64,000 nt of DNA, taken from Lachnospiraceae bacterium. Lineage in GTDB: Bacteria > Bacillota > Clostridia > Lachnospirales > Lachnospiraceae. The position numbers were made by a program, and so were the translations under genes. The stretch spans positions 3,735-67,734 of the forward strand of contig CAAFXG010000316.1 in the NCBI GenBank assembly GCA_900766925.1, in the 5' to 3' direction. Below are positions 4,981-28,020 of the stretch, piece after piece (the first letter of the stretch is position 1; every line of letters starts with the position of its first letter). Below the pieces are notes generated by a model that was not told the origin of the DNA, did not search any database, and saw only the letters and a program-made list of their open reading frames with translations.

Positions 4981-6373
4981 TCCAATACTTGTTATAACCT
5001 ATATGCTTGTGACGGTGTTTATGTGTCTCATCGGATATATTATATATTTTATGCAGTTTAAAGCAGAGGTTACAATAGCAAATACCAGGAACATTCGTCA
5101 GGATTCCTTTTCAGACGTTGTGGAACGTGGTGATATTATAACCAGTGATGGTGTAGTTGTTGCAACAAGTACAACGGATGAAGAGGGTAATACCACAAGG
5201 TCATATCCTTATGCTAATATGTTTGCACATGTTGTTGGCTATGACTCTAACGGGAAGTCCGGTCTTGAGCTTCAGGGTAATTTTTATATGCTGAGAACTC
5301 ACATCAATATGTTCGAGAGAATTTATAAGCAGATTAAGGAAAAGAAAAACAGGGGCGATAATCTGGTTACAACTATAAGCTACGATTTACAGAGCGCGGC
5401 TTATAATGCACTTTCAGGGTGTAATGGTGCAGTTGTGGTGCTTGAGCCTTCATCAGGTAAGATATTGGCTATGGTGTCCAAACCGGATTTTGATCCGAAT
5501 AATATGGACTATGTATGGTCATACCTGCAGTCAGAGGAAGGAGAAAAAAGCACATTATTATTAAATCGAGCCACACAGGGGTTATATGCACCTGGCTCTA
5601 CATTCAAAATTCTGACCATGCTTGAGTATATGCGTGAAAATACTGACTATGAAAGCTATGTATATGAATGTGCAGGAAATGCAATATTTTCAAATGTTCG
5701 AATCAGGTGTAGTAATGACCGGGTACATGGTACTGAGAATCTGGCAGACTCTCTTGCCTATTCGTGTAATCTTTCGTTTGCAAATATAGGTATGTCCCTT
5801 AATCTTGCAAGCTACAGAAAAACCGCCGATGAGCTTTTATATAACTCTGAGCTTCCTTATGATGGTGAATATAGTAAGTCATCGTTTGTATTAGATTCAG
5901 GCAGTGATAAGGATTCCGTTCCACAGACGGTAATCGGGCAGGGTGAAACGCAGATTACTCCATTGCATAATGCCATGATTATGTCAGCCATTGCCAATGG
6001 AGGTGTTTTGATGAAGCCTTATTTGATTGATTCTATTGTCAATGACGATGGAGCAAACATAAAAAGCTTTTCGAGCAAAACCTACGGTAGTCTGATTACG
6101 GTTGATGAAGCATCAGTTCTTACTGAATATATGAAGGGTGTATGTGATTATGGAACTGCATCCGGATACTTTGCAGGACTTGAATATGATGTGGCCGGTA
6201 AGACAGGAACGGCAGAGTATGATAATAATGGTAACTGTAATTCATGGTTTGTTGGATTTTCAAATCCTGACCAGCCCGATATTGTGGTGAGTGTTGTTGT
6301 TGAGGATTCAAATACAACAGGTGTTTCGGGAGTCTCCGTGGCACGACAGATATTTGACGCATACTATTATTAG
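4874..6373 (+). CDS. Class B penicillin-binding protein (transpeptidase) partnered with the upstream SEDS gene
   Basis: One N-terminal TM helix. Motifs are SxxK (APGSTFK), SxN (YSCN) and KTG (AGKTGTA). The start is uncertain: the listed start is TTG at 4874, which overlaps the SEDS gene by 107 nt. Confidence 0.8.
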   Translation: MKKKEKESLNAKPLLTEEEFLEREQQRAKNNKIKNNPILVITYMLVTVFMCLIGYIIYFMQFKAEVTIANTRNIRQDSFSDVVERGDIITSDGVVVATSTTDEEGNTTRSYPYANMFAHVVGYDSNGKSGLELQGNFYMLRTHINMFERIYKQIKEKKNRGDNLVTTISYDLQSAAYNALSGCNGAVVVLEPSSGKILAMVSKPDFDPNNMDYVWSYLQSEEGEKSTLLLNRATQGLYAPGSTFKILTMLEYMRENTDYESYVYECAGNAIFSNVRIRCSNDRVHGTENLADSLAYSCNLSFANIGMSLNLASYRKTADELLYNSELPYDGEYSKSSFVLDSGSDKDSVPQTVIGQGETQITPLHNAMIMSAIANGGVLMKPYLIDSIVNDDGANIKSFSSKTYGSLITVDEASVLTEYMKGVCDYGTASGYFAGLEYDVAGKTGTAEYDNNGNCNSWFVGFSNPDQPDIVVSVVVEDSNTTGVSGVSVARQIFDAYYY

Positions 6374-7933: not shown

Positions 7934-8017
7934 GCCGGTGTGTCGGAATTGGCAGACGAGGCAGACTCAAAATCTGTTGATGGCAACATCGTGCGGGTTC
8001 AAGTCCCGCCACCGGCA
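7934..8017 (+). tRNA. tRNA-Leu, anticodon CAA (type II, long variable arm)
   Basis: Hand-folded cloverleaf. Acceptor GCCGGTG/CACCGGC, anticodon stem GCAGA/TCTGT with loop CTCAAAA, 15-nt variable arm (GATG/CATC), T-arm GCGGG-TTCAAGT-CCCGC, discriminator A. CCA is not encoded. Confidence 0.93.
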
Positions 8018-9977: not shown

Positions 9978-12683
9978 ATGAATAAGAGTAAAAACAGTTT
10001 AAAACGTATTAAGAAATCTGCAGCATATATTATGGTTGCCATAATGGCAGGAACTTGTCTTAATCTGCCGGCAAATACTATGAAAGTTATGGCGGCTGAA
10101 CAGGGCACAATAGCCAATTCAACATTTCAAACTGAATACACCTATGGAGACACAATTAATCCTACAACAGAAATGTTCTCAATTAATAATAGCTCTGCCG
10201 TCCCGAGCTTTACCTGGTACTTAGGTGATGTAACGGAAGGAGAGCTTGATTCCACGCAGGCATTAGAGGCAATCCCAACAGATGCAGATACATATACTCT
10301 GGTTGTTTCAATTGAAGAAGATGATAATTATTCAGCGGCTGAGCTACGTATTAAGGTTGTAATTGAACCGAAGGTTCCTACAGCACCTACAGCACCGGTT
10401 ATCAGTAATGACGACATTACAGATACATCGGTAACTATTACGATACCTTCTCCTGCAGATGAAAATGATACAACTAAATATGAATATCTGTGTATAAAGA
10501 GTAGTGATGTTACGAATGAATATAATCCGGCAGAGAGTACAGGCTGGACAGAATCTAACATATTTAATGATTTGGATGCAAACACAGCCTATACATTTTA
10601 CCAAAGAATTGCAAAAGTAGACGATAATACAATAGAATCTGCACCAAGTGGTTCTACTGAGGTTACAACCCTTAAGACAGACATTACCAACAGTGCAGTT
10701 GTAACGGTACAGGGTACATATACATATACCGGTTCGGCGATTACCCCTGAAGCAGCAAATGTTACAGTATCAGTTAATGATACAAATATAGACTCTTCTA
10801 AGTATACGTTTTCTGCATCTGATAATATTAATGCTGGAACAGCTACAATTACTGTTACAATGAACAACGATGCTGAATTTACCGGCAGTCCTACCGGCAC
10901 ATTTACCATTGATGCAGCTACCCTTGCAGATTATACACTCCCGACCGCTTCAGATATTGAATACGGAGAGACATTGGCAGACAGTGAGCTTACAGGTGGG
11001 TCAGTTTCATTTAATGAACAGACAGTAGAAGGAACATGGAGCTTTAAAAATCCTAATACTAAGCCGGATGTAAATACAGAGGGAGCTTTATTTGAAATTG
11101 TTTTTACGCCGGGTACTAACTATAATCCAATAGAGAATGTATCCGTAAATGTAAAGATTAATTATGGAACTGCTCCTAATCCGCCGGAATCAACAGCTGC
11201 ACCGACTTATGGCAAAGATAAAACTGTTGCTGATGTGAGCTTACCGGCCGGTTGGTCATGGAATAACGAAGATGCCACAAAAGCACTTATAGTCGGTACA
11301 GAGGTAGAAGCAACGGCAAATTATACGGCAGATGATGCCGATAATTATTCCGCTGAAAGTAAGAGCGTTACCATTAAGATTATAATGTCAGATTGTCCAC
11401 ATTCACATAAGTCAACTATTAATGCTAAGACTGAAAGCTGCACATCGGAGGGCTACACCGGTGATACATGGTGCAGTGATTGTGAAAGTGTAGTTACCCA
11501 AGGTAGCAAAATTCCAAAGAAGTCGCATAATCTTAAAAAGACTGCGGCAGTTGAGCCAACATGTGTTTCGAATGGCAATATTGAATACTGGACATGCTCA
11601 TCTTGTAAAAAAATATATTCAGACTCTAAGGCTACAACTCAGGTGACTAATACTAAGCTAACTATTGATTCAAAAAATCATAAGAGCATAGATATTAAGG
11701 GAGACAAGGCTCCAACCTGTTCAGAAGAAGGATATACTGGAGATACATTTTGTTTGGATTGCAGGACAACCGTTAGTTATGGAAAACCAATCGACAAAAT
11801 TGAACATTCCCCTAAGACTGCAGTCAAGGAAAATGTTGAGGAAGCAACCTGTACAACAGCAGGTTCATATAATTTGGTTGTATATTGCTCAGAATGTGAC
11901 AGTGTTATCAGTAGCACACACAAAGTAATACCTGCATTAGGACATAAGCTTACCAAAACTGCTGCAGTTGCACCAACCTGTAAGAAAAAAGGTAATAAAG
12001 AGTATTGGACCTGCTCGGTTTGTGACAAAATTTATAGTGATTCGAAGGCAACAAACGAAACAACTAAGAGCAAAATGACTCTCAGGATTGATTCAGATAA
12101 TCATGTCAATATTGTCATCAGATATGCAAAGGCACCTACATGTGTTAAATATGGATATACAGGTGATACATATTGTAAGGATTGTGGTAAGCAGATTGAT
12201 ACCGGAGATATTATCAAAAAGCTGCCTGTTCCTGCGAAGGGTAAAACTCTTACTGATACCAAGACTATGGCTAAGTACAAGGTTACGAAATCCGGAACCA
12301 AGGGTGGAACGGTAACGTATGTTAAGTCAACTAACAGTAAAGCAACTAAGGTTACTATTCCATCGACAGTTAAAATTGACGGTATTACATATAAGGTAAC
12401 TGCAATCGGTGCAAACGCATTCAAATCCAATACCAAAATTAAAACTCTGGTAATCGGCTCTAATATTGAAAGCATAGGCAAAAATGCGTTCTATGGTGCA
12501 AAGAACCTTAAGTCTGTTACAATTAAGACTGCTAAGCTCACCTCCAAAAAGCTGGGCTCAAAGTCATTTAGTAAGCTTAATTCCAAGGCAGTCATAAAGG
12601 TTCCTTCAAAGCAATTAAAGAACTACAGAACAATTCTCAAAAAAGCCGGAATTACAGGTAAAAATCAGAAAATAACCAAATAG
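9978..12683 (+). CDS. Secreted/cell-surface protein with Ig/MBG-like repeats, six His-Cys3 modules and a C-terminal BspA-type leucine-rich repeat region
   Basis: 901 aa with RBS AGGGAGG. The signal peptide ends ...MKVMAAEQG. Repeated modules PTCxxxGxxxxxxCxxC are present. The LRR-like C-terminus reads IPSTVKIDGITYKVTAIGANAFKSNTKIKTLVIGSNIESIGKNAFYGAKNLKSVTI. No LPXTG-type sorting signal. Confidence 0.8.
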   Translation: MNKSKNSLKRIKKSAAYIMVAIMAGTCLNLPANTMKVMAAEQGTIANSTFQTEYTYGDTINPTTEMFSINNSSAVPSFTWYLGDVTEGELDSTQALEAIPTDADTYTLVVSIEEDDNYSAAELRIKVVIEPKVPTAPTAPVISNDDITDTSVTITIPSPADENDTTKYEYLCIKSSDVTNEYNPAESTGWTESNIFNDLDANTAYTFYQRIAKVDDNTIESAPSGSTEVTTLKTDITNSAVVTVQGTYTYTGSAITPEAANVTVSVNDTNIDSSKYTFSASDNINAGTATITVTMNNDAEFTGSPTGTFTIDAATLADYTLPTASDIEYGETLADSELTGGSVSFNEQTVEGTWSFKNPNTKPDVNTEGALFEIVFTPGTNYNPIENVSVNVKINYGTAPNPPESTAAPTYGKDKTVADVSLPAGWSWNNEDATKALIVGTEVEATANYTADDADNYSAESKSVTIKIIMSDCPHSHKSTINAKTESCTSEGYTGDTWCSDCESVVTQGSKIPKKSHNLKKTAAVEPTCVSNGNIEYWTCSSCKKIYSDSKATTQVTNTKLTIDSKNHKSIDIKGDKAPTCSEEGYTGDTFCLDCRTTVSYGKPIDKIEHSPKTAVKENVEEATCTTAGSYNLVVYCSECDSVISSTHKVIPALGHKLTKTAAVAPTCKKKGNKEYWTCSVCDKIYSDSKATNETTKSKMTLRIDSDNHVNIVIRYAKAPTCVKYGYTGDTYCKDCGKQIDTGDIIKKLPVPAKGKTLTDTKTMAKYKVTKSGTKGGTVTYVKSTNSKATKVTIPSTVKIDGITYKVTAIGANAFKSNTKIKTLVIGSNIESIGKNAFYGAKNLKSVTIKTAKLTSKKLGSKSFSKLNSKAVIKVPSKQLKNYRTILKKAGITGKNQKITK

Positions 12684-13589: not shown

Positions 13590-16031
13590 ATGAAAAATTT
13601 GACAACACTTAGTCTAAGGTATCTAAAGCAAAACAGACACAGAACAATCACAACTATTATTGGTGTACTGTTATCTTCAATGCTTGTTTATATTATTTTC
13701 GTTGCCGGAAATAGCATATATGACTCTGTGACACTTACAAATTACGAAAAAAGCTATGGAGTTGATGCAATTTATTCTGTCACATACGAGCAGTGTAATG
13801 ATTTGCTTTCTATGGCTCCATACTATGAAAAGGAAAGTGCAATTGAAATAAATGAGCTTGAGGTTTCGCATGCATTTGCCTTTTGTTCTTCATATCAGAC
13901 TTATATAAATGATTTTAAAGCAATGCCGGTACCGTTTGATATGGTATATGGAACTGTACCAAAATCATTTAATTCTATAATTATTTATAACGAAGATGCA
14001 AGACTATCAGACCTTAAGGTTGGCGACAAAATACAAACATTTACTTCAATTAACAATGATAGTTTTGAAAAAAGACCTGATACAGTTGAAAAGCAAATTT
14101 CAGGAACATTTGATGAAACAAAAGAATTGATGATTGAAAATCCCGATACCGGAGAAACTATAGGCTTATATATGTACAGCAGTTACATGCTGATGTCCGA
14201 TGAAGTTATGCAGGAAGCAGCGTCACTTAATAAGCTGTACGTCTGTGTTACATTTGCAAATAAGGATAATCTCACTGATAAGATAGCTCTCTTATCGTCA
14301 CACTTAAATAACTGTAAATATTACATAAATCCTGATGCACTTGAAGCATTTGAAAATGAAAATTCACTTACTTATCTTGCCTTTAATGCGATTAGCTTGT
14401 TAATAGCGGCAGTTGTTGCCTTCCTTACAATGTTTATTGTAAGAAATGCTTTTAATATATCTGTACACGAACGCAATAACGATTACGCAATATTAAGATG
14501 CATTGGTATGGACAGACGCCAGATTATAAAAATAGTATTAGCTGAAGCATTTATAATATCCCTTATCGGTGTTGTATTTGGTATGCTGATTGGACAGGGC
14601 ATTGTTACGGTGGGATTCTGGTATATAAGAAATATTCTTGATTTATCATCAGTTTATAAGGCCAGATTTTATTTAAAGGCGGTTGGTTTTACCTTGCTGT
14701 ATACTGTGGTTACTACTGCATATGCAATGATAGCACCTGTTGAACAGCTGTATAAGCTTAATCCGATAGAGGCAATACGCCGGGTTAATGATGTAAAACA
14801 AAAAAAGTTAAAATCGGGCAAAGGTAAGCTTTTAACGAAATTATTTGGTGTTGAGGTTGGCTATGCCTACAAAAATGTTATGCGCAAAAAGGGACGCTTT
14901 CTTATTACAGTATTTTCGCTTGTAGTATGCTCAACATTATTTGTAGGAATAACAACAGCCTTTTCTATGATTAATAAATGGATTAAAACCTGTGTGTATA
15001 CAGTTTCAGAATATGAGGCTGCATTTTATATTGACGATGAAAACATTAGTAAGTTCAGAAAGAATTTATATGATAATGAGTTAATAGAAAAAGACTTCGT
15101 TTTTAAATCCGGATTCGGATTTGTTACTGAGGATTCCGATTTTTATAAAAGCACAAATGCACTTTGCGGTTTATATCTTGGTTTTGATAATAAAAATTAT
15201 AATAAAATTGCCGATATGGCAGGCAGTAAGATTAAGTTCGATGCAAATGTAATTCCTGTAATAAAATTAACAGACGATACTGAACACGAGTTAGGCAGTA
15301 CCTATACCTTCTATAACGGAGATACTGAGGTTACGCTTGGAATTACAGCAGAAATATCATGGCAGGATTTATTTAATTATATTAAAGAAATAGGTATTTT
15401 AAATTATGTCGCTGATTATAGTAATATGTCGTATATAATATACAATATGGATGATGGCTTCATGGGACCGGCTTTATGTCCTGATGGTAAAGACGGCTTT
15501 AATAATGTTGGTAATGATTATAAAATGCTTGTAAAATTAAATCCGGATACAGACTCAAGAAAATTTGATGAATTCCTTAAAAAATGTCCTTATTGGTTTG
15601 ATGATACATATACATATTTAAAAGAAATCTACAAGAGCTTTCAGGCTGTAGAAGCAATTATAATATTGTTTATTTTAATTCTTCTTATAATTATAATTGT
15701 TAATAACATCAATATGAACCGTTCCGATATGATAATGCGGCGTAAGGAATTTGAAATATTACAGACTATCGGAATGAGTTACAGACAACATAGTAAAATG
15801 CTGTATGCTGAATCACTGTTTTCAACGATTACTGCATCAATTATTGGTTCAATACTGGGTACATTTCTAGGCTTTTTGATTTCATACGGAATAATTATTG
15901 ATGATTTGCTTGATGGCAAAATTAGTTTTTCAGCCAACCCGATATCAATAATTATATCCTTTATTATATTTATTGTTTTTGGAATAATATCAGTATTTCT
16001 CTCAAGGGAGGAAGATTACAGGCTGGGGTAA
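13590..16031 (+). CDS. FtsX-family ABC permease with two FtsX modules (BceB-like)
   Basis: Two TM clusters (around aa 270-400 and aa 690-815) are separated by TM helices and a large soluble domain. I prefer ATG 13590 (MKNLTTLSLRYLKQN), 2 nt after the ATPase stop, over 13566. Confidence 0.8.
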   Translation: MKNLTTLSLRYLKQNRHRTITTIIGVLLSSMLVYIIFVAGNSIYDSVTLTNYEKSYGVDAIYSVTYEQCNDLLSMAPYYEKESAIEINELEVSHAFAFCSSYQTYINDFKAMPVPFDMVYGTVPKSFNSIIIYNEDARLSDLKVGDKIQTFTSINNDSFEKRPDTVEKQISGTFDETKELMIENPDTGETIGLYMYSSYMLMSDEVMQEAASLNKLYVCVTFANKDNLTDKIALLSSHLNNCKYYINPDALEAFENENSLTYLAFNAISLLIAAVVAFLTMFIVRNAFNISVHERNNDYAILRCIGMDRRQIIKIVLAEAFIISLIGVVFGMLIGQGIVTVGFWYIRNILDLSSVYKARFYLKAVGFTLLYTVVTTAYAMIAPVEQLYKLNPIEAIRRVNDVKQKKLKSGKGKLLTKLFGVEVGYAYKNVMRKKGRFLITVFSLVVCSTLFVGITTAFSMINKWIKTCVYTVSEYEAAFYIDDENISKFRKNLYDNELIEKDFVFKSGFGFVTEDSDFYKSTNALCGLYLGFDNKNYNKIADMAGSKIKFDANVIPVIKLTDDTEHELGSTYTFYNGDTEVTLGITAEISWQDLFNYIKEIGILNYVADYSNMSYIIYNMDDGFMGPALCPDGKDGFNNVGNDYKMLVKLNPDTDSRKFDEFLKKCPYWFDDTYTYLKEIYKSFQAVEAIIILFILILLIIIIVNNINMNRSDMIMRRKEFEILQTIGMSYRQHSKMLYAESLFSTITASIIGSILGTFLGFLISYGIIIDDLLDGKISFSANPISIIISFIIFIVFGIISVFLSREEDYRLG

Positions 16032-16046
16032 AATTACCCCAGCCTG
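16019..16046. terminator. Palindrome spanning both stop codons of the convergent permease and sigE genes (possible bidirectional terminator)
   Basis: CAGGCTGGGGTA-AAAT-TACCCCAGCCTG, 12-bp arms. There is no strong T-tract on either side. Confidence 0.45.
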
Positions 16047-16762
16047 ATCATTTCCTTTTTAAGTCTCTTGATTATTTTTTTCTCTAATCTTGATATGTAA
16101 GATTGTGAAATACCCAGTAAATCAGCCACCTCCTTCTGGGTCATTTCCTCATCATTGTGACCAATACCAAATCTAAGCTCAATTATGGTTCTTTCGCGTT
16201 CAGACAGGGTTTCCATTGCCTGTTCAAGCAACGAACGGTCGACCTCATCCTCCAAATCCTTATATACTACGTCATCATCAGTTCCCAGAATGTCAGACAG
16301 AAGTAGCTCATTACCATCCCAGTCAACATTTAATGGCTCATCTATGGAAACCTCGACTCTTGTTCTTGAGCTTCTTCTAAGGTGCATAAGAATCTCATTT
16401 TCAATACATCGGCTTGCATAGGTTGCCAGTTTTATATTTTTATCTGTTTTAAAGGTATTAATTGCTTTAATTAGTCCAATAGTTCCTATGGAGATTAAAT
16501 CCTCAACTCCAACACCGGTATTGTCAAATTTTTTAGCTATATATACAACAAGCCGAAGATTATGCTCTATTAGGGTTCGCCTGACCTGTATATCATCGTC
16601 AGACAGCTTTTCAAGCATAAGTGCTTCCTCCTCTGAAGACAGTGGTGGTGGGAGAATTTCAGCTCCTCCAATATAATGTACCTCGTTTTTTGGAAAAAAT
16701 AAAACATTTGCAAAGCTTTTGATATTGAATCTTATTTTGTTATTACTAACAATACTAATCAT
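16034..16762 (-). CDS. sigE: Sporulation sigma factor, pro-sigma-E
   Basis: [18 protein letters not shown]...[40 protein letters not shown]...[20 protein letters not shown] is nearly colinear with B. subtilis pro-SigE, including an N-terminal pro-sequence. RBS is GAGAGGAG. Confidence 0.9.
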
Positions 16763-17636
16763 TTGAATACTCCTCTCTATATGGTTTTAAGCTTTCATTA
16801 AGTAAAACCTGATAATCTCCGGTATATGAATTTTTGAAGCTGTATCTGCTTATACAAGCTGTAATATTTTTATATATTTTTCCATTGTTACAAAATGAAA
16901 CTGAAGAAAGCTTAAACGCCGGCATATAAGCCAGATTTGTACTTATAGTCTGATATGCAATAGGATAAAACAGATTATGCACCAGCTTGTGAGCCGAAGA
17001 GTAGTCGAATTCACCTGTGTTATGATAGGAGAGAATTATACTGTATGTAAGATCATCAAATAATCCTTTTAAACTCTGATAATCTATAATTATTACAGGA
17101 TTTCCGGTATAATCGTCCGTTAAAACATTTCCTGAATCATAATACCCCGTCAATTCAACACTGGATTTATCCAGCGTCAGCATAACATCATATAAATATT
17201 TACTTCTTACAAATCTTCTTTTAAATAAAATGCAACAAAAAAGGATTATTCCTCCCAATAAAATAATTTTTGTTACAAGCTCGTATGATGATATAAATCC
17301 TTTTTGGTTGTCAATTGAAAGTATTCCACAAAGTAAAATCATCACACAAAGAACTGCCAGAACGTAAATACAAAAATTTGTTTCAGAATTCCATTTAAAA
17401 TATAAATATGTCATAAATGTATAAATGGTGACATATAATATAAGATGTAACAGGAAAAATCTGTTTAATGTCAGTAAATACACAATTTCAGTAAATAAAG
17501 CAGTTAAAACAGACCAGCTACATGCACGTATAATCTTTATACGTTTACCTTGTAATGCTGATGCAGCAGATATTATAAACAGGTTAATAAGACTGTTTGT
17601 AATAAGCATGACATCTGCATATACAATATAGGTCAT
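16755..17636 (-). CDS. spoIIGA: Sigma-E processing peptidase SpoIIGA
   Basis: Five N-terminal TM helices followed by the aspartic protease motif [11 protein letters not shown]...PVIII. It lies immediately upstream of sigE and overlaps it by 8 nt. I prefer ATG 17636 (GGGAGG 5 nt upstream) over GTG 17642. Confidence 0.85.
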
Positions 17637-17721
17637 ATTCACCTCCCTGATTCTTTAGATGCAATTATAGTAGCCTGATGATGAAAAAATCGTCGTTTGA
17701 TGGTGTATGATTTCAAAGAAG

Positions 17722-17782
17722 TTCGATTATGTTCGACATGAATGCGGACTATCATGGATTAAGAAGAAAATAATAATCGACA
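17722..17782 (-). promoter_or_regulatory. Candidate Spo0A boxes upstream of spoIIGA
   Basis: On the - strand there is one exact 0A box TGTCGAA (17732-17738). Two near matches are AATCGAA (17722-17728) and TGTCGAT (17776-17782). They lie 86-146 nt upstream of the start. Confidence 0.45.
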
Positions 17783-17802
17783 AATTGAAGTGTGCAATAT
17801 AT

Positions 17803-17850
17803 AAAAGGAACAGCCACATTAGCAAAATTAAATTGCAATATGGCTGTCCC
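17803..17850 (-). terminator. Intrinsic terminator of the SDR gene
   Basis: The - strand reads GGGACAGCCATATT...AATGTGGCTGTTCC followed by TTTT. Confidence 0.7.
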
Positions 17851-17878
17851 TAAAATTCATTTAATTATAAGCTATACG

Positions 17879-18682
17879 TTACCAGGTACGACCTGACATC
17901 ATTCTAAACTGTGCCACGGTAGGAGTGTGCGAATTTAAACCTCCGTCACAGGTAAGTACCTGTCCGTTCATATATGCTGCCTCATCACTTGCAAGATATA
18001 CACACAGATGACCAATGTCCTCAGGCATACCATATCGTTTTCCAAGAATATTAGACATAAATATCGATTTTAATTGTTCCGGAATACGGTTTTCATTCTG
18101 AGGTGTAACAATAAGACCCGGTCGAACACAGTTGCAACGAATACCATTTGGACCATACATACATGCAACATATTCAGTAAGCTTGTCAACACCGGACTTA
18201 GCACATGCATAAGCAATTGTACCAAGATCACCACCCGCACTTGCCATTGAACCAATATTGATAATACTACCGCCATTCTCGTTTTTCAGCATATATGGGA
18301 GGGCTTCCTTAATCATATTAAATGTGCCACCAAGGTCCGTAGCAACAACTGCGTTGAACTGTTCGAGAGTAAGCTCATCAACACGTCCATCCTTCATGCC
18401 CATACCGGCTGCATTGTTGATAAGAACATCAATACGTCCGAATTTCTCAGCAACGTCTGCAATTAATGCGTGCATAGATTCCTGATTTGTAAGGTCAAAT
18501 GCATGAAACCATGCATTACCGCCTTCTGACTGAATATCCTCAACAACCTTCTGACCACGCTCAACATTACGACCTGTAATTATTACCTGTGCTGCCTCTT
18601 TGGCACACAGCTTGGCAATACCAATACCGATACCGCTGGTAGAACCGGTAACAATTACTACTTTATCCTTTAATCTCTCCAA
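17879..18682 (-). CDS. Short-chain dehydrogenase/reductase (SDR) family oxidoreductase
   Basis: TGSTSGIGIG cofactor motif, NNAG, and catalytic S...YACAK. TTG start with a GGAGGTG RBS. Confidence 0.9.
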   Translation of the reverse strand: MERLKDKVVIVTGSTSGIGIGIAKLCAKEAAQVIITGRNVERGQKVVEDIQSEGGNAWFHAFDLTNQESMHALIADVAEKFGRIDVLINNAAGMGMKDGRVDELTLEQFNAVVATDLGGTFNMIKEALPYMLKNENGGSIINIGSMASAGGDLGTIAYACAKSGVDKLTEYVACMYGPNGIRCNCVRPGLIVTPQNENRIPEQLKSIFMSNILGKRYGMPEDIGHLCVYLASDEAAYMNGQVLTCDGGLNSHTPTVAQFRMMSGRTW

Positions 18683-18831
18683 TTAAAACACCTCCATAAA
18701 ATAAAATTATGTAACAATATCAAAGCTGTTATTATACCAGATATTTACATATTATTAGTTTATTTTACTTTCAGCTTAAATGCAAGTAAAATTAAATTTA
18801 TTTTTAAAAATTTTATATAAAGGGTTATTTT

Positions 18832-20547
18832 ATGAATTATGACATTTCAAAAATTAGTACTGAGCTTGAAATAGCAATTGATACACCTGAAGATTTAAGA
18901 CAGAATTCACTGGATCTTAACGTAGGCTATGACATGCTTTTCAGGGAGTGGGAGCTTATAATAAAATATACAGGAAACCTTGATAAAATTGCAACACAGC
19001 TTGAATTTACATTTACAGAGCTTCTTAATGGTTATGCAATCATAAGAATAAGTGAAGAAAAAATAGAACTCTTAAGTCAGATTCCTGAAATAATCTTTAT
19101 TGAAAAGCCAAAAAGCATTTATACAGCCGATACTTCAATACAGACAGGCAAAATTGTATCCTGCATGGATATTAATGTTGAAGCACTTCTTGGTACATCA
19201 GATGTTGCTTTAAATGGTGACGGCGTTTTAGTTGCTGTAATAGATTCAGGTATTGATTTCTCAAATCCGTATTTTATTAATCCGGATGGTACATCCAAAA
19301 TAGTAAGCTATTGGAATCAGGATGTCCCCGGGAATCCACCGGAGGGGTACAAAATAGGTTCTGTTTATTCGGGTGAAGAGCTTAAATCCATAGATAGAAC
19401 TGATAGTATTTTTTATGATCTGACTGACGTGTCAGGTCATGGAACCGCAGTTGCAGGGATTATTGCAGAATCAGTGCCTATGGCAGGATTGATAATTGTA
19501 AAGCTTGCAGATTCAAATAATTTTGGCTTTCCAAGGACAACATCTTTAATGATGGGGATTGACTACAGTATTCGGGTAGCTTTAAATTTGAATCTGCCGT
19601 TGGTAATTAATATAAGTTTTGGGAATAATTATGGTGATCATGCAGGAAATTCAATATTGGAAAGCTATATAAATGATGTATCAGGTGTCGGAAGAATTAA
19701 TATGGTGACCGGCATGGGTAATGACGGAAACAGTGGAAGACACATAAGAAGATTATTGAAAACAGGACAGAGCACTGATGCAGAATTTATAGTACGCCTG
19801 TATGAAACAGCTATAAATATCCAAATTTGGCGCAGTTATGCAGATGATGTATTAATTTCAATGACAACTCCAAGAAATGAGATTATCGGTCCGTTTAACA
19901 AATATCAGGAAATCATGACCTATAATCTGGCTGATATGACTATAATTGTATTAAATGGTTCACCATCACCAATAAATAAAAATCAGGAAACCTATATCTC
20001 AATAATTCCAAATCAAACTTATATCCAGGAAGGAATATGGAAAATCAGTATACAGGCAAAAAAAATAAATGACGGTTTTATTGATTTATGGCTTCCGGTC
20101 GCAGACAGTACCAGTACTGCCGTAAGTTTTCTTGAATCTGACGCAGACATTTCACTTACAATACCTGCTTCGGCCTCATCCACAATAAGTGTGGGGGCAT
20201 ATGATGCGGTATCTCTTACATATGCTCCATTTTCAGGTAGAGGATTTACAAGAGATAACAGAGTTAAGCCGGAAATATCTGCACCGGGAGTAGGTATTAA
20301 AACTGCTGCCATAGGAGGTGGTGAAACAATAGTATCCGGCACTTCATTTGCAGCACCATTTGTTTCAGCCGGCGCGGCTATGTTAATGCAATGGGGTATA
20401 ACGACGGGAAACGACCCATATTTATACGCAGAAAAGCTCAAAGCCTATCTCATCAGAGGTGCAAGAAAATTACCCGGTTATATGGAATGGCCTAACGAAA
20501 AGCTGGGATACGGTGCACTATGTGTAAAGGACAGTCTGCCCATATAA
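18832..20547 (+). CDS. Subtilisin-like S8 serine protease, germination Csp-like
   Basis: 571 aa with no signal peptide. The prodomain-like N-terminus reads WELIIKYTGNL...LLNGYAIIRI...IIFIEKPK. The catalytic triad is intact: VAVIDSGID, SGHGTAVAG, SGTSFAAPFVSG. Confidence 0.7.
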   Translation: MNYDISKISTELEIAIDTPEDLRQNSLDLNVGYDMLFREWELIIKYTGNLDKIATQLEFTFTELLNGYAIIRISEEKIELLSQIPEIIFIEKPKSIYTADTSIQTGKIVSCMDINVEALLGTSDVALNGDGVLVAVIDSGIDFSNPYFINPDGTSKIVSYWNQDVPGNPPEGYKIGSVYSGEELKSIDRTDSIFYDLTDVSGHGTAVAGIIAESVPMAGLIIVKLADSNNFGFPRTTSLMMGIDYSIRVALNLNLPLVINISFGNNYGDHAGNSILESYINDVSGVGRINMVTGMGNDGNSGRHIRRLLKTGQSTDAEFIVRLYETAINIQIWRSYADDVLISMTTPRNEIIGPFNKYQEIMTYNLADMTIIVLNGSPSPINKNQETYISIIPNQTYIQEGIWKISIQAKKINDGFIDLWLPVADSTSTAVSFLESDADISLTIPASASSTISVGAYDAVSLTYAPFSGRGFTRDNRVKPEISAPGVGIKTAAIGGGETIVSGTSFAAPFVSAGAAMLMQWGITTGNDPYLYAEKLKAYLIRGARKLPGYMEWPNEKLGYGALCVKDSLPI

Positions 20548-20682
20548 CCATTAACCGGATTACTTCTTTTATTGAGGTTAATTCTAAATTATGATATAAT
20601 ATGATGCGCGCGTAGGTCATCAAACTTCGTTTGGTGACATTATATAATCCCAACATTATACGGAAACAGGGTATGATAACTA

Positions 20683-23226
20683 ATGAAAAATCTTGTATTT
20701 GGTATTCTGGCACACGTTGATGCCGGTAAGACAACTTTATCTGAAGCCATGCTTTATCATGCAGGAATTCTAAAAAATCCCGGAAGGGTAGATAATCGCG
20801 ATACAATGCTTGACAGTAATGAAATGGAGCGGGCAAGAGGTATAACTATATTTTCTAAGCAGGCACATTTTGAGGTTGATAACACTCATATAACTTTACT
20901 CGATACACCGGGACACGTGGATTTTTCGGCAGAAATGGAACGTACACTTTCTGTTTTAGATTACGCTATTCTGGTGATAAGTGCAACTGACGGTGTGCAG
21001 GGGCATACCAGGACGCTTTGGAAACTGTTTGATGAATACAAAATTCCTGTTTTTATTTTTGTAAATAAAATGGATCAGCATAATAGTGATAAAGCTGAAA
21101 TATTAACAAAGCTTCAGGCAGAGCTTTCGGAGGGCTGTGTTGATTTATCAGCTTCAGAAGCATACGAGGAAATTGCCGTGGTCTCGGGGGATGAAAAGCT
21201 ACTTGAATACTATCTGTCCAATGGAACTATTTCAAAAGATGTTATAATTAATCTTATTGGTCAGCGTAAAATATTTCCGTGCTATTTTGGTTCAGCATTA
21301 AAATTATATGGTGTCAGTGATCTTCTTGACGGTATAGATATCTATACAAAGGAACCTTCATATGGGGAGAAATTCGGTGCAAGAGTTTATAAAATTACCC
21401 GTGACCCACAGGGAAACAGATTGACACATATGAAGATAACAGGCGGTAAATTAACAATAAAATGTCCGGTAACTGCCGATGAAAAGGTAAACCAGATTCG
21501 CATATATAATGGCGACAAATACGATAACATAAACGAGATAGGACCCGGACATGTTTGTGCAGTTACAGGTTTAAACAGCACCAGGGCAGGAGATGGCTTA
21601 GGCTTTGAATCAGACAATGACATTCAGCTTATTGAACCTGTACTAACATACAAATTATCCCTGCCTGACAATATGTCATCCAGAAAAATATATCCTGAGA
21701 TGAAATGTCTTGAAGAAGAATTGCCGGAGCTTTGTGTAAACTGGAACGAAGAAGCAGAAGAAATAACAGTTAAACTTATGGGACTTGTTCAGATAGAAAT
21801 ATTAACATCCCTTATTAATAAAAGATTTGGCTTTGAACCCATATTTGGAACAGGAACAATTACATACAAGGAAACCATTTCCAATACAGTAATAGGAGTG
21901 GGACATTTTGAACCCTTACGGCATTACGCAGAGGTACATCTTTTGATGGAACCTGCAGAGCCGGGGACCGGAATAATACTTGATACCAATTGTAGCGAGG
22001 ATGTACTTGAACGTAACTGGCAACGATTAATTCTGACACATCTTAAGGAAAAAAAACATCTGGGAGTACTCACCGGTTCAGCGCTGACTGATGTAAAAAT
22101 TACTGTTATTAACGGCAGGGCACATCAAAAGCATACAGAAGGCGGAGACTTTCGGCAGGCAACCTACAGGGCAGTCCGCCAGGGACTTATGCAGGCTGAA
22201 GCTGTATTGCTTGAACCATACTATAATTTCAGAATAGAAATACCTTCGGATATGGTTGGGCGTGTCATGACCGATATTGAGACTATGCACGCAACAATTA
22301 ATCCGCCTGATATTACCGGTGACTACGCTGTTATCAAGGGTTATGGTCCTGTTGCTACAATGAGAGATTATCAGATTAATCTGAATGCATATACAAGGGG
22401 CTGTGGAAATATTTTTGTAAGCTTCAGAGGCTATGATATATGTCATAATCAGGATGAAGTGGTATCACAAATAAACTACAATCCTGATAATGACCTTAAA
22501 AATCCTTCTTCCTCTGTTTTTTGTGCACATGGTTCAGGCTTTATTGTTCCATGGTATGAGGTTCCTGAATATATGCATGTGTCTGATGAGACGGAAACAG
22601 ATATATTCTCTGTAAATCCAGACCTATACAAACCGAAGGCCGGCTTTGACTATTCAATCGACCTTGAGGAAATAGATGCTATTTTTTCAAGAACCTTTAA
22701 TGCAAACATCAAATCAGATAAGCATGATTTTAAGAAAAAGAAAACTAATTTACAATATTATACAAAAACCAATACCGGAAAAATAAATCCATCCCGTGAA
22801 AAAATGCTTATTGTTGACGGATATAATGTTATTTTTGCATGGGAAGAATTAAAGTCCCTTGCAGGTATTAATATTGATTCCGCCAAAGACAGGCTTATTC
22901 ATATATTATCTAATTATTACGGAATAACAGGAGAAAAACTTCTTTTAGTTTTTGACGGATACAAGCTAAAGGGCAATTACGGAAGTAACGTTGCCGTGGA
23001 TGACATAGAAATTGTTCATACAAAGGAGGGTGAGACTGCAGACCAATATATTGAGAAATATACCTATACCAATGCGGACAAATATGATATAACAGTTGCA
23101 ACCTCGGATGGTCTGATACAGACAATCTGCCGTTCCAAGGGCTGTCGCATACTTTCATCAAGAGAACTTTTGGATATAATTGAGGTAACGTCGCAAAAAT
23201 TACGTGATGAATATCACATTGACTAA
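20683..23226 (+). CDS. Tet(M)/EF-G-like translational GTPase fused to a C-terminal YacP/Rae1-type NYN ribonuclease domain
   Basis: G1 AHVDAGKT, G2 RGITI, G3 DTPGH, G4 NKMD, plus EF-G-like domains II-V. From about aa 708 (nt 22804), MLIVDGYNVIFAW...LLLVFDGY...EGETADQYIE...ITVATSDGLIQ...LSSRELL aligns with B. subtilis YacP (Rae1). Confidence 0.85.
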   Translation: MKNLVFGILAHVDAGKTTLSEAMLYHAGILKNPGRVDNRDTMLDSNEMERARGITIFSKQAHFEVDNTHITLLDTPGHVDFSAEMERTLSVLDYAILVISATDGVQGHTRTLWKLFDEYKIPVFIFVNKMDQHNSDKAEILTKLQAELSEGCVDLSASEAYEEIAVVSGDEKLLEYYLSNGTISKDVIINLIGQRKIFPCYFGSALKLYGVSDLLDGIDIYTKEPSYGEKFGARVYKITRDPQGNRLTHMKITGGKLTIKCPVTADEKVNQIRIYNGDKYDNINEIGPGHVCAVTGLNSTRAGDGLGFESDNDIQLIEPVLTYKLSLPDNMSSRKIYPEMKCLEEELPELCVNWNEEAEEITVKLMGLVQIEILTSLINKRFGFEPIFGTGTITYKETISNTVIGVGHFEPLRHYAEVHLLMEPAEPGTGIILDTNCSEDVLERNWQRLILTHLKEKKHLGVLTGSALTDVKITVINGRAHQKHTEGGDFRQATYRAVRQGLMQAEAVLLEPYYNFRIEIPSDMVGRVMTDIETMHATINPPDITGDYAVIKGYGPVATMRDYQINLNAYTRGCGNIFVSFRGYDICHNQDEVVSQINYNPDNDLKNPSSSVFCAHGSGFIVPWYEVPEYMHVSDETETDIFSVNPDLYKPKAGFDYSIDLEEIDAIFSRTFNANIKSDKHDFKKKKTNLQYYTKTNTGKINPSREKMLIVDGYNVIFAWEELKSLAGINIDSAKDRLIHILSNYYGITGEKLLLVFDGYKLKGNYGSNVAVDDIEIVHTKEGETADQYIEKYTYTNADKYDITVATSDGLIQTICRSKGCRILSSRELLDIIEVTSQKLRDEYHID

Positions 23227-26433: not shown

Positions 26434-26456
26434 GCATACAATTTAATATTATAAAC

Positions 26457-26648
26457 ATATAAAAAAAGCGTGATTCTGTCGGCACCGGCTGTATATATAG
26501 CTAATAAAAAGACCGTTTGGCAACGTCAGCACTTAACGAGCGTGTTTTTAGACGAGTTTAGTACTGTTACGTTGACAACCGAGCGGGAGTAAGTCTTATT
26601 ATTAGCTATATATACAGCCGGTACCGACAGAATCACGTTTTTTTATAT
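26457..26648. repeat. Giant hairpin element copy 1: about 53-bp stem with A-tract/T-tract flanks and a 79-nt apical core
   Basis: I paired it base by base. Positions 26461-26513 pair with 26593-26644 with only an A.A (26508/26598) and a C.A (26483/26623) mismatch. The core 26514-26592 is homologous (as reverse complement) to the core of copy 2. Confidence 0.8.
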
Positions 26649-26715
26649 TCATACATTGTTTTTTGGTATATTTTGTGATATTTTATAGAAGAGTATGTTT
26701 ATTTGGAGGTTTGTA

Positions 26716-28020
26716 ATGAGAGAATATTCTACACAAATGGAAGCGGCAAGAAAAGGAATTATTACACCCGAATTAAAAAAGGTTGCAGATAAAGAAAAAA
26801 TGTCTGTAGATGAATTATTGCCATTAGTTGCAAGTGGTAAAGTTGTTATTTGTGCTAACAAAAATCATAAATGTCTTGAACCACAGGGTGTGGGCTCAAT
26901 GCTTACAACCAAAATTAATGTAAATCTTGGTGTTTCGAAGGATTGCAAGGATTATGATATAGAAATGAAAAAGGTTATGGAAGCAGTCGATATGGGTGCA
27001 CATGCAATAATGGATTTGTCATCACATGGTAATACTATTCCGTTTAGAAGAAAACTCACCTCGGAATGTCCTGTTATGATAGGAACCGTGCCTGTATATG
27101 ATTCTGTTATACACTATCAGAGGGATCTTGCAACCCTCACTGCAAAGGATTTTATAGATGTTGTGCGTCTTCACGCCGAAGATGGTGTTGATTTTGTTAC
27201 ACTTCACTGCGGAATTACCCGTAAGACTATAGAACAAATTAAAAATCACAAGCGTAAGATGAATATAGTATCAAGAGGCGGTTCTCTCGTCTTTGCATGG
27301 ATGACGATGACCGGTAACGAAAATCCATTTTATGAATATTATGACGAGATATTAGATATATGCAGAGAATATGATGTTACAATTTCACTTGGAGATGCGT
27401 GCCGCCCGGGTTGTCTTGCTGACGCATCGGATGTATGCCAGATTGAAGAGCTGGTTCGGCTTGGAGAGCTTACCAAACGTGCATGGGAAAAGGATGTACA
27501 GGTTATGGTTGAAGGTCCCGGACATATGCCTATGGATCAGATTGCAGCCAATATGAAGCTTCAACAGACAATTTGTATGGGAGCACCATTTTATGTACTC
27601 GGACCGCTTGTAACAGATATTGCACCGGGATATGACCATATTACATCAGCTATCGGAGGTGCAATTGCTGCAGCTTCAGGTGCAGCGTTTCTGTGCTATG
27701 TTACACCTGCTGAGCATTTGGCACTTCCTAATGTTGAAGATGTAAAGCAGGGTATAATCGCATCTAAGATTGCAGCCCACGCGGCTGACATTGCCAAGGG
27801 AATAAGAGGTGCAAGAGATATAGACGACAGGATGGCTGACGCAAGACGGGCTCTTGACTGGGAAACACAGTGGGAGTGTGCCATAGATCCTGATACTGCC
27901 AGGGCAATCCGTGATGACAGAAGTCCTGAGCATGATGATACATGCTCAATGTGCGGTAAATTCTGTGCCGTAAGGAGTATGAATAAGGCGTTAGCAGGTG
28001 AATACATAGATATTTTATAA
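26716..28020 (+). CDS. thiC: Phosphomethylpyrimidine synthase ThiC
   Basis: The sequence is colinear with ThiC, for example [12 protein letters not shown] and the C-terminal Fe-S motif [11 protein letters not shown] prefer ATG 26716 (RBS GGAGG) over 26695. Confidence 0.9.

Follow-up and report, generated by a model that had tools for sequence, protein, structure and literature searches.

The window analysed in this study is a 64,000-nucleotide (nt) stretch of DNA from a Lachnospiraceae bacterium (GenBank assembly GCA_900766925.1, contig CAAFXG010000316.1, positions 3,735 to 67,734 of the forward strand), and the element in question is a plus-strand gene at its positions 20683 to 23226. As an earlier sequence-only reading of the same DNA had stated, the gene is one uninterrupted open reading frame (ORF), which begins at the first in-frame start codon and encodes a single polypeptide of 847 amino acids (aa). 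That reading had also recognised a Tet(M)/elongation factor G (EF-G)-like GTPase joined to a Rae1/YacP nuclease, and Pfam matches were obtained for both halves. At the level of sequence, the gene is thus confirmed to be a real single-polypeptide fusion of a five-domain EF-G/Tet-like GTPase with a Rae1-type nuclease. Its features, with the evidence for each, are as follows.

20683..23226, + strand: whole gene, 847-aa translational GTPase–Rae1 fusion, stop codon included (ORF, Pfam, homologues)
20683..21348, + strand: G domain with a short G' insert, aa 1-222 (Pfam GTP_EFTU, aa 4-222, E 3.1e-53)
21373..21840, + strand: domains II and III, aa 231-386 (Pfam EF-G_D2, aa 231-306, E 3.2e-09, and EFG_III, aa 318-386, E 1.5e-04, the latter under its gathering score; AlphaFold2 secondary structure; Foldseek matches to EF-G)
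21856..22197, + strand: domain IV, aa 392-505 (Pfam EFG_IV, E 5.4e-16)
22204..22452, + strand: domain V, aa 508-590 (Pfam EFG_C, E 2.5e-19)
22453..22578, + strand: family-specific C-terminal mini-module, aa 591-632 (conservation and AlphaFold2; no Pfam match)
22579..22797, + strand: flexible, poorly conserved tether, aa 633-705 (predicted local distance difference test score, pLDDT, and column conservation)
22798..23223, + strand: Rae1-type NYN_YacP endoribonuclease domain, aa 706-847 (Pfam NYN_YacP, E 3.3e-39; PDB 5MQ8/5MQ9)

The AlphaFold2 model of the fusion protein (mean pLDDT 79.7; predicted template modelling score, pTM, 0.45) is well folded over aa 1-643 and 704-847, and its best PDB matches in Foldseek were EF-G chains (E 5e-50). 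The best 120 database homologues were 54-65% identical to the window protein and 845-895 aa long, all with PF00009 plus PF05991. A query consisting of the tether plus the nuclease (aa 590-847) recovered 303 clusters at 50% identity with E <= 1e-30. Among the best 150 of these 303 clusters that were listed, 88 of 835-1069 aa were taken into the alignment, and the shorter members, which begin at a point within the fusion, have the look of truncated fragments. The resulting family alignment comprises 96 diverse fusion members, and a closer set of 67 sequences was used beside it. A one-genome-per-species scan matched at least 600 genomes, from which 80 genome loci were compared; all 80 cover at least query residues 1-813, most reach 840-847, and each locus across Clostridia carries one copy of the gene. 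The homologues and the genome loci carry both halves, which rules out a frameshift or an assembly error, the alternative by which the sequence-only reading could have fallen.

Hosts were found in Lachnospiraceae, Oscillospiraceae (Intestinimonas, Flavonifractor, Dysosmobacter), Anaerovorax, Fusibacter, Eubacteriaceae, Herbinix and Cellulosilyticaceae, and the fusion is common in gut and soil Clostridia. To these hosts the list of Atkinson (2015; PMC4342817) adds Ruminococcus albus, Acetivibrio thermocellum, Clostridium cellulolyticum and Desulfitobacterium hafniense. The same study described Tet-NYN_YacP fusions in Clostridia, and a 'TetM-NYN_YacP' fusion of unclear role was noted by Matelska (2017; PMC5499597). 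Over residues 1-844 the window protein shares 53% identity with the published Lachnoclostridium phytofermentans ISDg fusion (Atkinson 2015, Additional file 8), and this end-to-end similarity, with both halves in one polypeptide, places it in the published Tet-like GTPase-NYN_YacP family. The architecture is therefore not new, contrary to what had been supposed at first; the other part of that supposition stood, since full-text literature searches found no functional study of the fusion, nor was it mentioned in the examined parts of the two newest Rae1 papers (PMC12407103, PMC13622287). The fusion is thus published as an architecture and apparently uncharacterised in function, and the gene is best filed in a published but unstudied family of Tet-like-GTPase–Rae1 fusions.

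The GTPase half carries the full set of motifs of a translational GTPase: the P-loop AHVDAGKT, the switch I motif RGITI (with T55), DTPGH with His78, NKMD and GSAL. With G1-G5 and the catalytic His followed by domains II-V, it belongs to the EF-G branch of the translational GTPase superfamily. D13, G15, K16, T55, D74-G77, N128, K129 and D131 are invariant in the 96 fusion members, and H78 is conserved in at least 90% of them and invariant in the closer set. Since G1-G5 and His78 are invariant or nearly so, the GTPase half should be catalytically competent and, like translational GTPases in general, activated by the sarcin-ricin loop (SRL).

Mean column conservation in the family alignment was highest for domain IV (0.69), followed by the mini-module (0.62), the G domain and the NYN domain (0.60 each), domains III and V (0.49) and the linkers (0.20). 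The tip of domain IV is formed by two family-specific, essentially invariant loops, loop 1 being GVGHFEPLRHYAEVH (aa 405-419, nt 21895-21939) and loop 2 GRAHQKHTEGGDFRQATYRA (aa 478-497, nt 22114-22173; family pattern GRAHxKHTEGGDFRQATYRA). In the alignment with Tet(M), the residues Y506, Y507, S508 and P509 by which loop III of its domain IV dislodges tetracycline are replaced by A480, H481, Q482 and K483 in the window protein. Of these four, A480, H481 and K483 do not vary within the closer set, and the tip histidine of EF-G domain IV falls opposite H481. That domain IV is the most conserved part of the protein and has invariant tip loops peculiar to this family argues for a specific contact of these loops with the decoding centre.

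The GTPase body, which had been drawn to residue 640 or so by its motifs and its colinearity with ribosomal protection proteins, bears these motifs and is colinear with Tet(M) residues 1-614; its EF-G-like part, however, ends at about residue 590 and is followed by the mini-module up to residue 632. The pattern of the mini-module over residues 587-632 is CHN..EV....Y.P..D..NP..SVFC.HG.G..VPW..V...MH, in which S611 is invariant and F613, C614, G617, W624 and H632 are conserved in at least 90% of the 96 members. It was modelled by AlphaFold2 as a helix, a beta-hairpin and a helix with pLDDT of about 70-85, and a Pfam search of the mini-module plus linker (aa 586-707) gave no match even at E = 10. 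Compared by eye, this family-specific module past domain V presumably bears no obvious likeness to the C-terminal extension of Tet(M).

The Lys-rich linker that had been proposed between the two halves was found again in the tether, as a KKKK run at aa 684-687 and stretches of low pLDDT (<50 at aa 644-659 and 674-703). Its composition is about 19% K/R and 17% D/E, and it includes a semi-conserved helix (aa 661-674, EEID.I..RTF) within a segment, aa 655-690, with a mean column conservation of 0.34. The distance from H632 to D712 is about 79 aa in the window protein and ranges from 70 to 196 aa across the family, with a median of 95. Because the tether is disordered in the model and variable in both length and sequence, it behaves as a leash rather than as a rigid fusion.

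As in Rae1, the C-terminal 140 aa are an NYN_YacP domain in which all active-site residues are kept. PF05991 matches aa 709-844 with 135 bits, well over its gathering score of 24.6. The NYN half aligned with crystallised Bacillus subtilis YacP/Rae1 (PDB 5MQ8/5MQ9) at E 1.2e-19 and was 37% identical to B. subtilis Rae1 by tblastn; the resemblances to YacP that had been picked out by eye (LIVDGYN, VFDG, ETAD, VATSD, SSRELL) were all reproduced in this alignment. Residues D7, N10, D53, D81 and D104 of Rae1 correspond to D712, N715, D758, D787 and D809, all invariant in the 96 members, so that the acidic positions of the active site are retained, as had been claimed. The predicted catalytic Asp codons lie at nt 22816-22818 (D712) and nt 23041-23043 (D787), and the D7N D81N double substitution is the published catalytic-dead mutant of Rae1 (PMC10351889). 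By analogy with Rae1, the job of the fused nuclease is likely translation-coupled mRNA cleavage.

The NYN domain of the window protein covers model positions 1-138 of 166, and the protein ends 3 aa past this core, so that the YacP C-terminal tail (model positions ~139-166) is missing. About half of the fusion family retains a tail of 13-37 aa after the NYN core. In a subset of members the tail has a YacP-type motif, for example RNYLxxxLSxE...IRLGK or KNYLFDQLSKE...EEIRLG, which resembles the tail of the stand-alone Clostridioides difficile YacP, RNWLEERLDKETLSKLENIRRKR. Since this subset keeps a YacP-type tail, it is a whole Rae1 that was fused, with the tail lost in the clade of the window protein.

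Rae1 differs from the fused nuclease in its setting. It is a free 170-aa protein whose binding to the ribosome is only transient (PMC13622287), while here the nuclease is the C-terminal passenger of a GTPase of about 700 aa. The Rae1 gene lies in a cysS-mrnC-rlmB-yacP-sigH cluster, whereas the fusion gene is found in unrelated contexts: its neighbours in the window are a CspB-like protease gene and trxA/trxB, and it is the stand-alone C. difficile gene that fits the canonical cluster. No second NYN_YacP gene was found by tblastn with the NYN domain and B. subtilis Rae1 in the window or the loci, stretches that amount to <1% of each genome and are therefore uninformative on co-occurrence. A protein search with the stand-alone C. 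difficile YacP gave, for all 120 matches listed, proteins of Peptostreptococcaceae.

A ribosome in the rotated or hybrid state is the normal substrate of EF-G, and the A site in complexes of EF-G or Tet(M) is taken up by domain IV of the factor. When ribosomes collide, the A site of the collided one lies about 27-30 nt upstream of that of the stalled one. Native B. subtilis disomes pair a non-rotated stalled ribosome with a collided one in the rotated/hybrid state (PMC10897456). As a stand-alone protein, Rae1 is an endonuclease that depends on translation and cleaves mRNA at the tail of stalled ribosomes, as set out in PMC12407103. The original 2017 docking model, recounted there, had Rae1 in the A site. 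Cleavage in the A site, which the sequence-only reading had taken as established, has since been withdrawn by its proposers in favour of a cut ~12 nt upstream of the stalled A-site codon (PMC12407103), and a preprint (Tetreault 2026; PMC13622287) describes Rae1-dependent transfer-messenger RNA (tmRNA) tagging on collided ribosomes ('CART'), upstream of trans-translation. According to the same preprint, a structure of ribosome-bound Rae1 is lacking since the binding is too transient.

The fusion gene is best explained as a chromosomal, housekeeping-type factor that would cut the mRNA of problem ribosomes. We put at about even the chance that the fusion is a ribosome-targeted, GTPase-anchored mRNA cleavage factor in translational quality control. 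Under this reading, the GTP-bound five-domain body would dock at the factor-binding site with its G domain on the SRL, and domain IV would enter the decoding centre and probe it with the two invariant His/Arg-rich loops. Because domain IV would then occupy the A site, the nuclease would have to act elsewhere, and the flexible tether could let the Rae1 domain reach mRNA outside the A site. The most likely target would be the mRNA entry channel of the bound ribosome, which, as estimated from general ribosome geometry, is within reach of a leash of this length. If the body binds the collided ribosome, and given the A-site spacing stated above, this stretch of the entry channel would on a disome fall at position -12 behind the stalled ribosome. 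GTP hydrolysis would release the factor, and upstream ribosomes would run to the message's new 3' end, where tmRNA would rescue them.

Several points weigh against this cleavage-factor reading. Ribosome binding, the RNA substrate, the cleavage site, a bias towards stalled or collided ribosomes and any connection with trans-translation are all inferred. The body of the fusion is Tet-like in its short G', and the ribosomes to which Tet(M) and Tet(O) bind are non-rotated and have the A site empty, so that the targeted ribosome may not be the rotated collided one. At the pTM given above, where the tether leaves the body and what it can touch are judged from what is known of EF-G and Tet(M) complexes rather than from the model. 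Further, the conserved mini-module (aa 591-632) could change the picture, and the fusion may either serve as Rae1 in these organisms or be a specialised paralogue.

A more specific version, which we consider possible but hold only tentatively, is that the fusion senses failed translocation on the rotated, collided ribosome, with its GTPase as the timer. The ribosome ahead would block translocation, and the resulting long dwell of the EF-G-like body would license the Rae1 domain to cut at the entry channel or disome interface. If true, no other no-go-decay nuclease in bacteria would have been driven by a translational GTPase before it, and a fusion locked with GDPNP or by mutation of H78 would be a handle on the missing structure of ribosome-bound Rae1.

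In Hbs1-Dom34 (Pelota), a translational GTPase inspects stalled ribosomes in mRNA surveillance; that system is a two-protein delivery of the EF-Tu type with no nuclease, while the fusion combines an EF-G-type GTPase and a nuclease in one polypeptide. SmrB of Escherichia coli and Cue2 of yeast are likely functional analogues, as they cut mRNA behind the stalled ribosome and pass upstream ribosomes to rescue (PMC12407103, PMC13622287). They differ from the fusion in having unrelated SMR nuclease folds and in recognising the disome interface directly, without a GTPase. Rae1 has newly become central to the Gram-positive collided-ribosome rescue pathway CART, and how it recognises the ribosome is the current question (PMC13622287). 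Here, hundreds of Clostridia species have this nuclease joined to a factor-site GTPase, among them model and gut organisms such as Acetivibrio thermocellum, Agathobacter rectalis, Lachnoclostridium phytofermentans and Desulfitobacterium hafniense. The fusion is therefore a strong hint as to the ribosome face from which Rae1 works, may offer a stable, nucleotide-lockable complex for cryo-electron microscopy, and possibly represents a new coupling of the GTPase cycle to bacterial mRNA surveillance.

Among the alternatives to mRNA cleavage, the one that survives best, unlikely as we judge it, is that the nuclease targets rRNA or tRNA and that the factor inactivates, matures or dismantles ribosomes, for example in starvation or sporulation. 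Such a target was raised by Atkinson (2015; PMC4342817), and NYN_YacP was earlier tied by gene neighbourhood to the rRNA/tRNA processing genes mrnC and rlmB (PMC5499597). A nuclease at the factor site would have the SRL, H69 and h44 nearby. Spore-formers are numerous among the hosts, and sigE/spoIIGA and the CspB-like germination protease gene are neighbours of the window gene; yet these sporulation neighbours are not conserved, no neighbour being present in more than 14 of the 80 loci and never at a fixed position. Moreover, Rae1, the sole characterised member of the nuclease family, cuts mRNA.

Delivery of the nuclease into the A site, where the GTPase would place the NYN domain for a RelE-like cut of the A-site codon, was the mechanism proposed in the sequence-only reading, and we now regard it as improbable. 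It draws on the fact that the fusion partner is a binder of the A site/GTPase centre and on the former docking of Rae1 in the A site (2017 model, as recounted in PMC12407103). It is sterically unlikely, as domain IV, here the best-conserved domain, fills the A site in textbook EF-G and Tet(M) complexes, and the nuclease hangs on a long disordered leash instead of standing in place of domain IV. The docking model behind it has, moreover, been superseded.

The automatic annotation implies yet another role, genuine tetracycline ribosomal protection with the RNase as an accessory. The RefSeq name of the A. rectalis homologue is 'TetM/TetW/TetO/TetS family tetracycline resistance ribosomal protection protein', with 'translation factor GTPase family protein' or 'NYN domain-containing protein' as the label of other homologues, a mis-annotation that had been foreseen from the sequence. 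In favour of this role, the best NCBIfam model was tet_protect, and the protein resembles Tet(M) and Tet(O) in its five-domain EF-G-like body, in the colinearity with Tet(M) and in the short G', which is ~67 aa shorter than that of Staphylococcus aureus EF-G (query 164-229 equals EF-G 175-307). However, the 414.8 bits for tet_protect fall below its family cut-off of 775, and the sub-models scored far under theirs, namely 217 of 1420 bits for Tet(M), 280 of 1425 for Tet(Q), 258 of 1100 for M/W/O/S and 289 of 900 for Otr(A). The N-terminal 640 aa are about equally near, by phmmer, to EF-G (221 bits), Tet(M) (219 bits) and Tet(O) (218 bits). Unlike Tet(M), the fusion has no Y506/Y507/S508/P509 in domain IV loop III, where A, H, Q and K stand instead, has a nuclease attached and lacks mobile-element carriage.

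Nor can the fusion be called an EF-G. It shares with EF-G all G motifs, and its domains II-V are matched by EF-G Pfam models, but the identity is only ~25%, loop I reads HFEPLRHY where EF-G has a QSGGRGQ-type loop, the full-size G' insert of EF-G is absent, and the EF-G cut-offs were not reached (267 bits against 659 for TIGR00484, 334 against 583 for NF009381). As for carriage, the surroundings of the fusion gene in hundreds of Clostridia species are chromosomal, variable and of housekeeping type, and bear no mobile-element signature; the conjugative transposons or plasmids and the patchy distribution that go with Tet proteins were not found, and the plasmid carriers were only two large non-mobilizable replicons. 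Tetracycline protection is accordingly given a very low probability, and the evidence from sequence comparison says that the fusion gene is not a tetracycline-resistance gene and that the Tet label is wrong. Tet(M)/(W)/(O)/(S) labels, which annotation pipelines routinely put on such genes, may inflate gut-metagenome resistome counts that rely on product names.

The weakest alternative, a translation-shutoff toxin or anti-phage abortive-infection effector, is scarcely credible: ribosome-targeted RNases are common among defence effectors, a BrnT/CopG toxin-antitoxin pair adjoins the A. rectalis gene and the Tetreault preprint speculates that Rae1 could act on collision-causing phage mRNAs (PMC13622287), but at E <= 0.01 the PADLOC protein models matched neither the full protein nor its NYN part, the 80 loci hold no conserved partner, immunity or antitoxin gene, the context is neither a defence island nor mobile, the 'phage' record examined is bacterial chromosome, and the gene is widespread across Clostridia as a single copy per locus.

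The gene order in the window is ruvB, FtsW/PBP2, sortase B, a two-component system, ABC/FtsX, sigE-spoIIGA, SDR, the CspB-like protease and the fusion gene, followed on its 3' side by trxA-trxB and then MCP and thiC. This is ordinary chromosome of a spore-forming organism of the Clostridium class. The sigE and spoIIGA pair (the latter for the pro-sigma-E processing protease; 16034-17642, minus strand) marks the host as a spore-former. The CspB-like germination protease gene (CspB prodomain plus subtilase; 18832-20547, plus strand) lies immediately 5' of the fusion gene; one is also found ~6 kb upstream of the fusion gene in MT835514 (7819-9444), and the family is near the gene in 4 of the 80 loci, a proximity that probably reflects synteny among relatives and not a functional link. 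When ORFs were clustered over the 80 loci plus the window, the idea of a conserved operon partner was rejected, as the commonest neighbour families (histidine kinase, ABC ATPase, MATE pump) occur in at most 14 of the 80 loci and at scattered positions. The loci of Anaerostipes faecalis and A. rectalis have other, unrelated housekeeping neighbours.

One candidate signal lies upstream of the fusion gene.

20572..20600, + strand: promoter-like site TTGAGG-17 nt-TATAAT with an upstream TG (10/12 matches; ~83 nt 5' of the start codon)

This site weakly suggests that the fusion gene is transcribed on its own; promoter-like sites in the region are no more frequent than the shuffled expectation, so that the evidence from the site is weak. 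A leader, attenuator or riboswitch as upstream of tet(M) was sought with Rfam in 20480-20760 without a match, and the fold of the 5' untranslated region was no better than that of shuffled sequence (z = -0.78).

Phage carriage was considered because of two 'Bacteriophage sp.' records, both flagged UNVERIFIED, and was rejected after MT835514 was examined and found to be bacterial chromosome. This record (MT835514.1, human faecal virome) encodes AddAB, FeoB, RsmH, GltX and glycerol kinase, and in 15204-19511 the fusion gene is followed directly by gltX, which in B. subtilis heads the operon that ends in yacP. In A. rectalis (NZ_CP143948.1), the BrnT/CopG pair is at 5429-5937, immediately upstream of the fusion gene on the opposite strand, and the replicon, a 252-kb 'plasmid', is packed with housekeeping genes.

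Elsewhere in the window, a 901-aa ORF (9978-12683, plus strand) had no NCBIfam match at E <= 1e-10. The 260-nt stretch 26434-26694 before thiC (26695-28020) had no match to the TPP riboswitch or any other Rfam family at E <= 1, which is unusual for a Firmicute thiC. A lone tRNA gene (7934-8017, plus strand; Rfam 55 bits) lies between the sortase B gene and the PhoB-type two-component system, and is the sole gathering-level Rfam match in the 64 kb.

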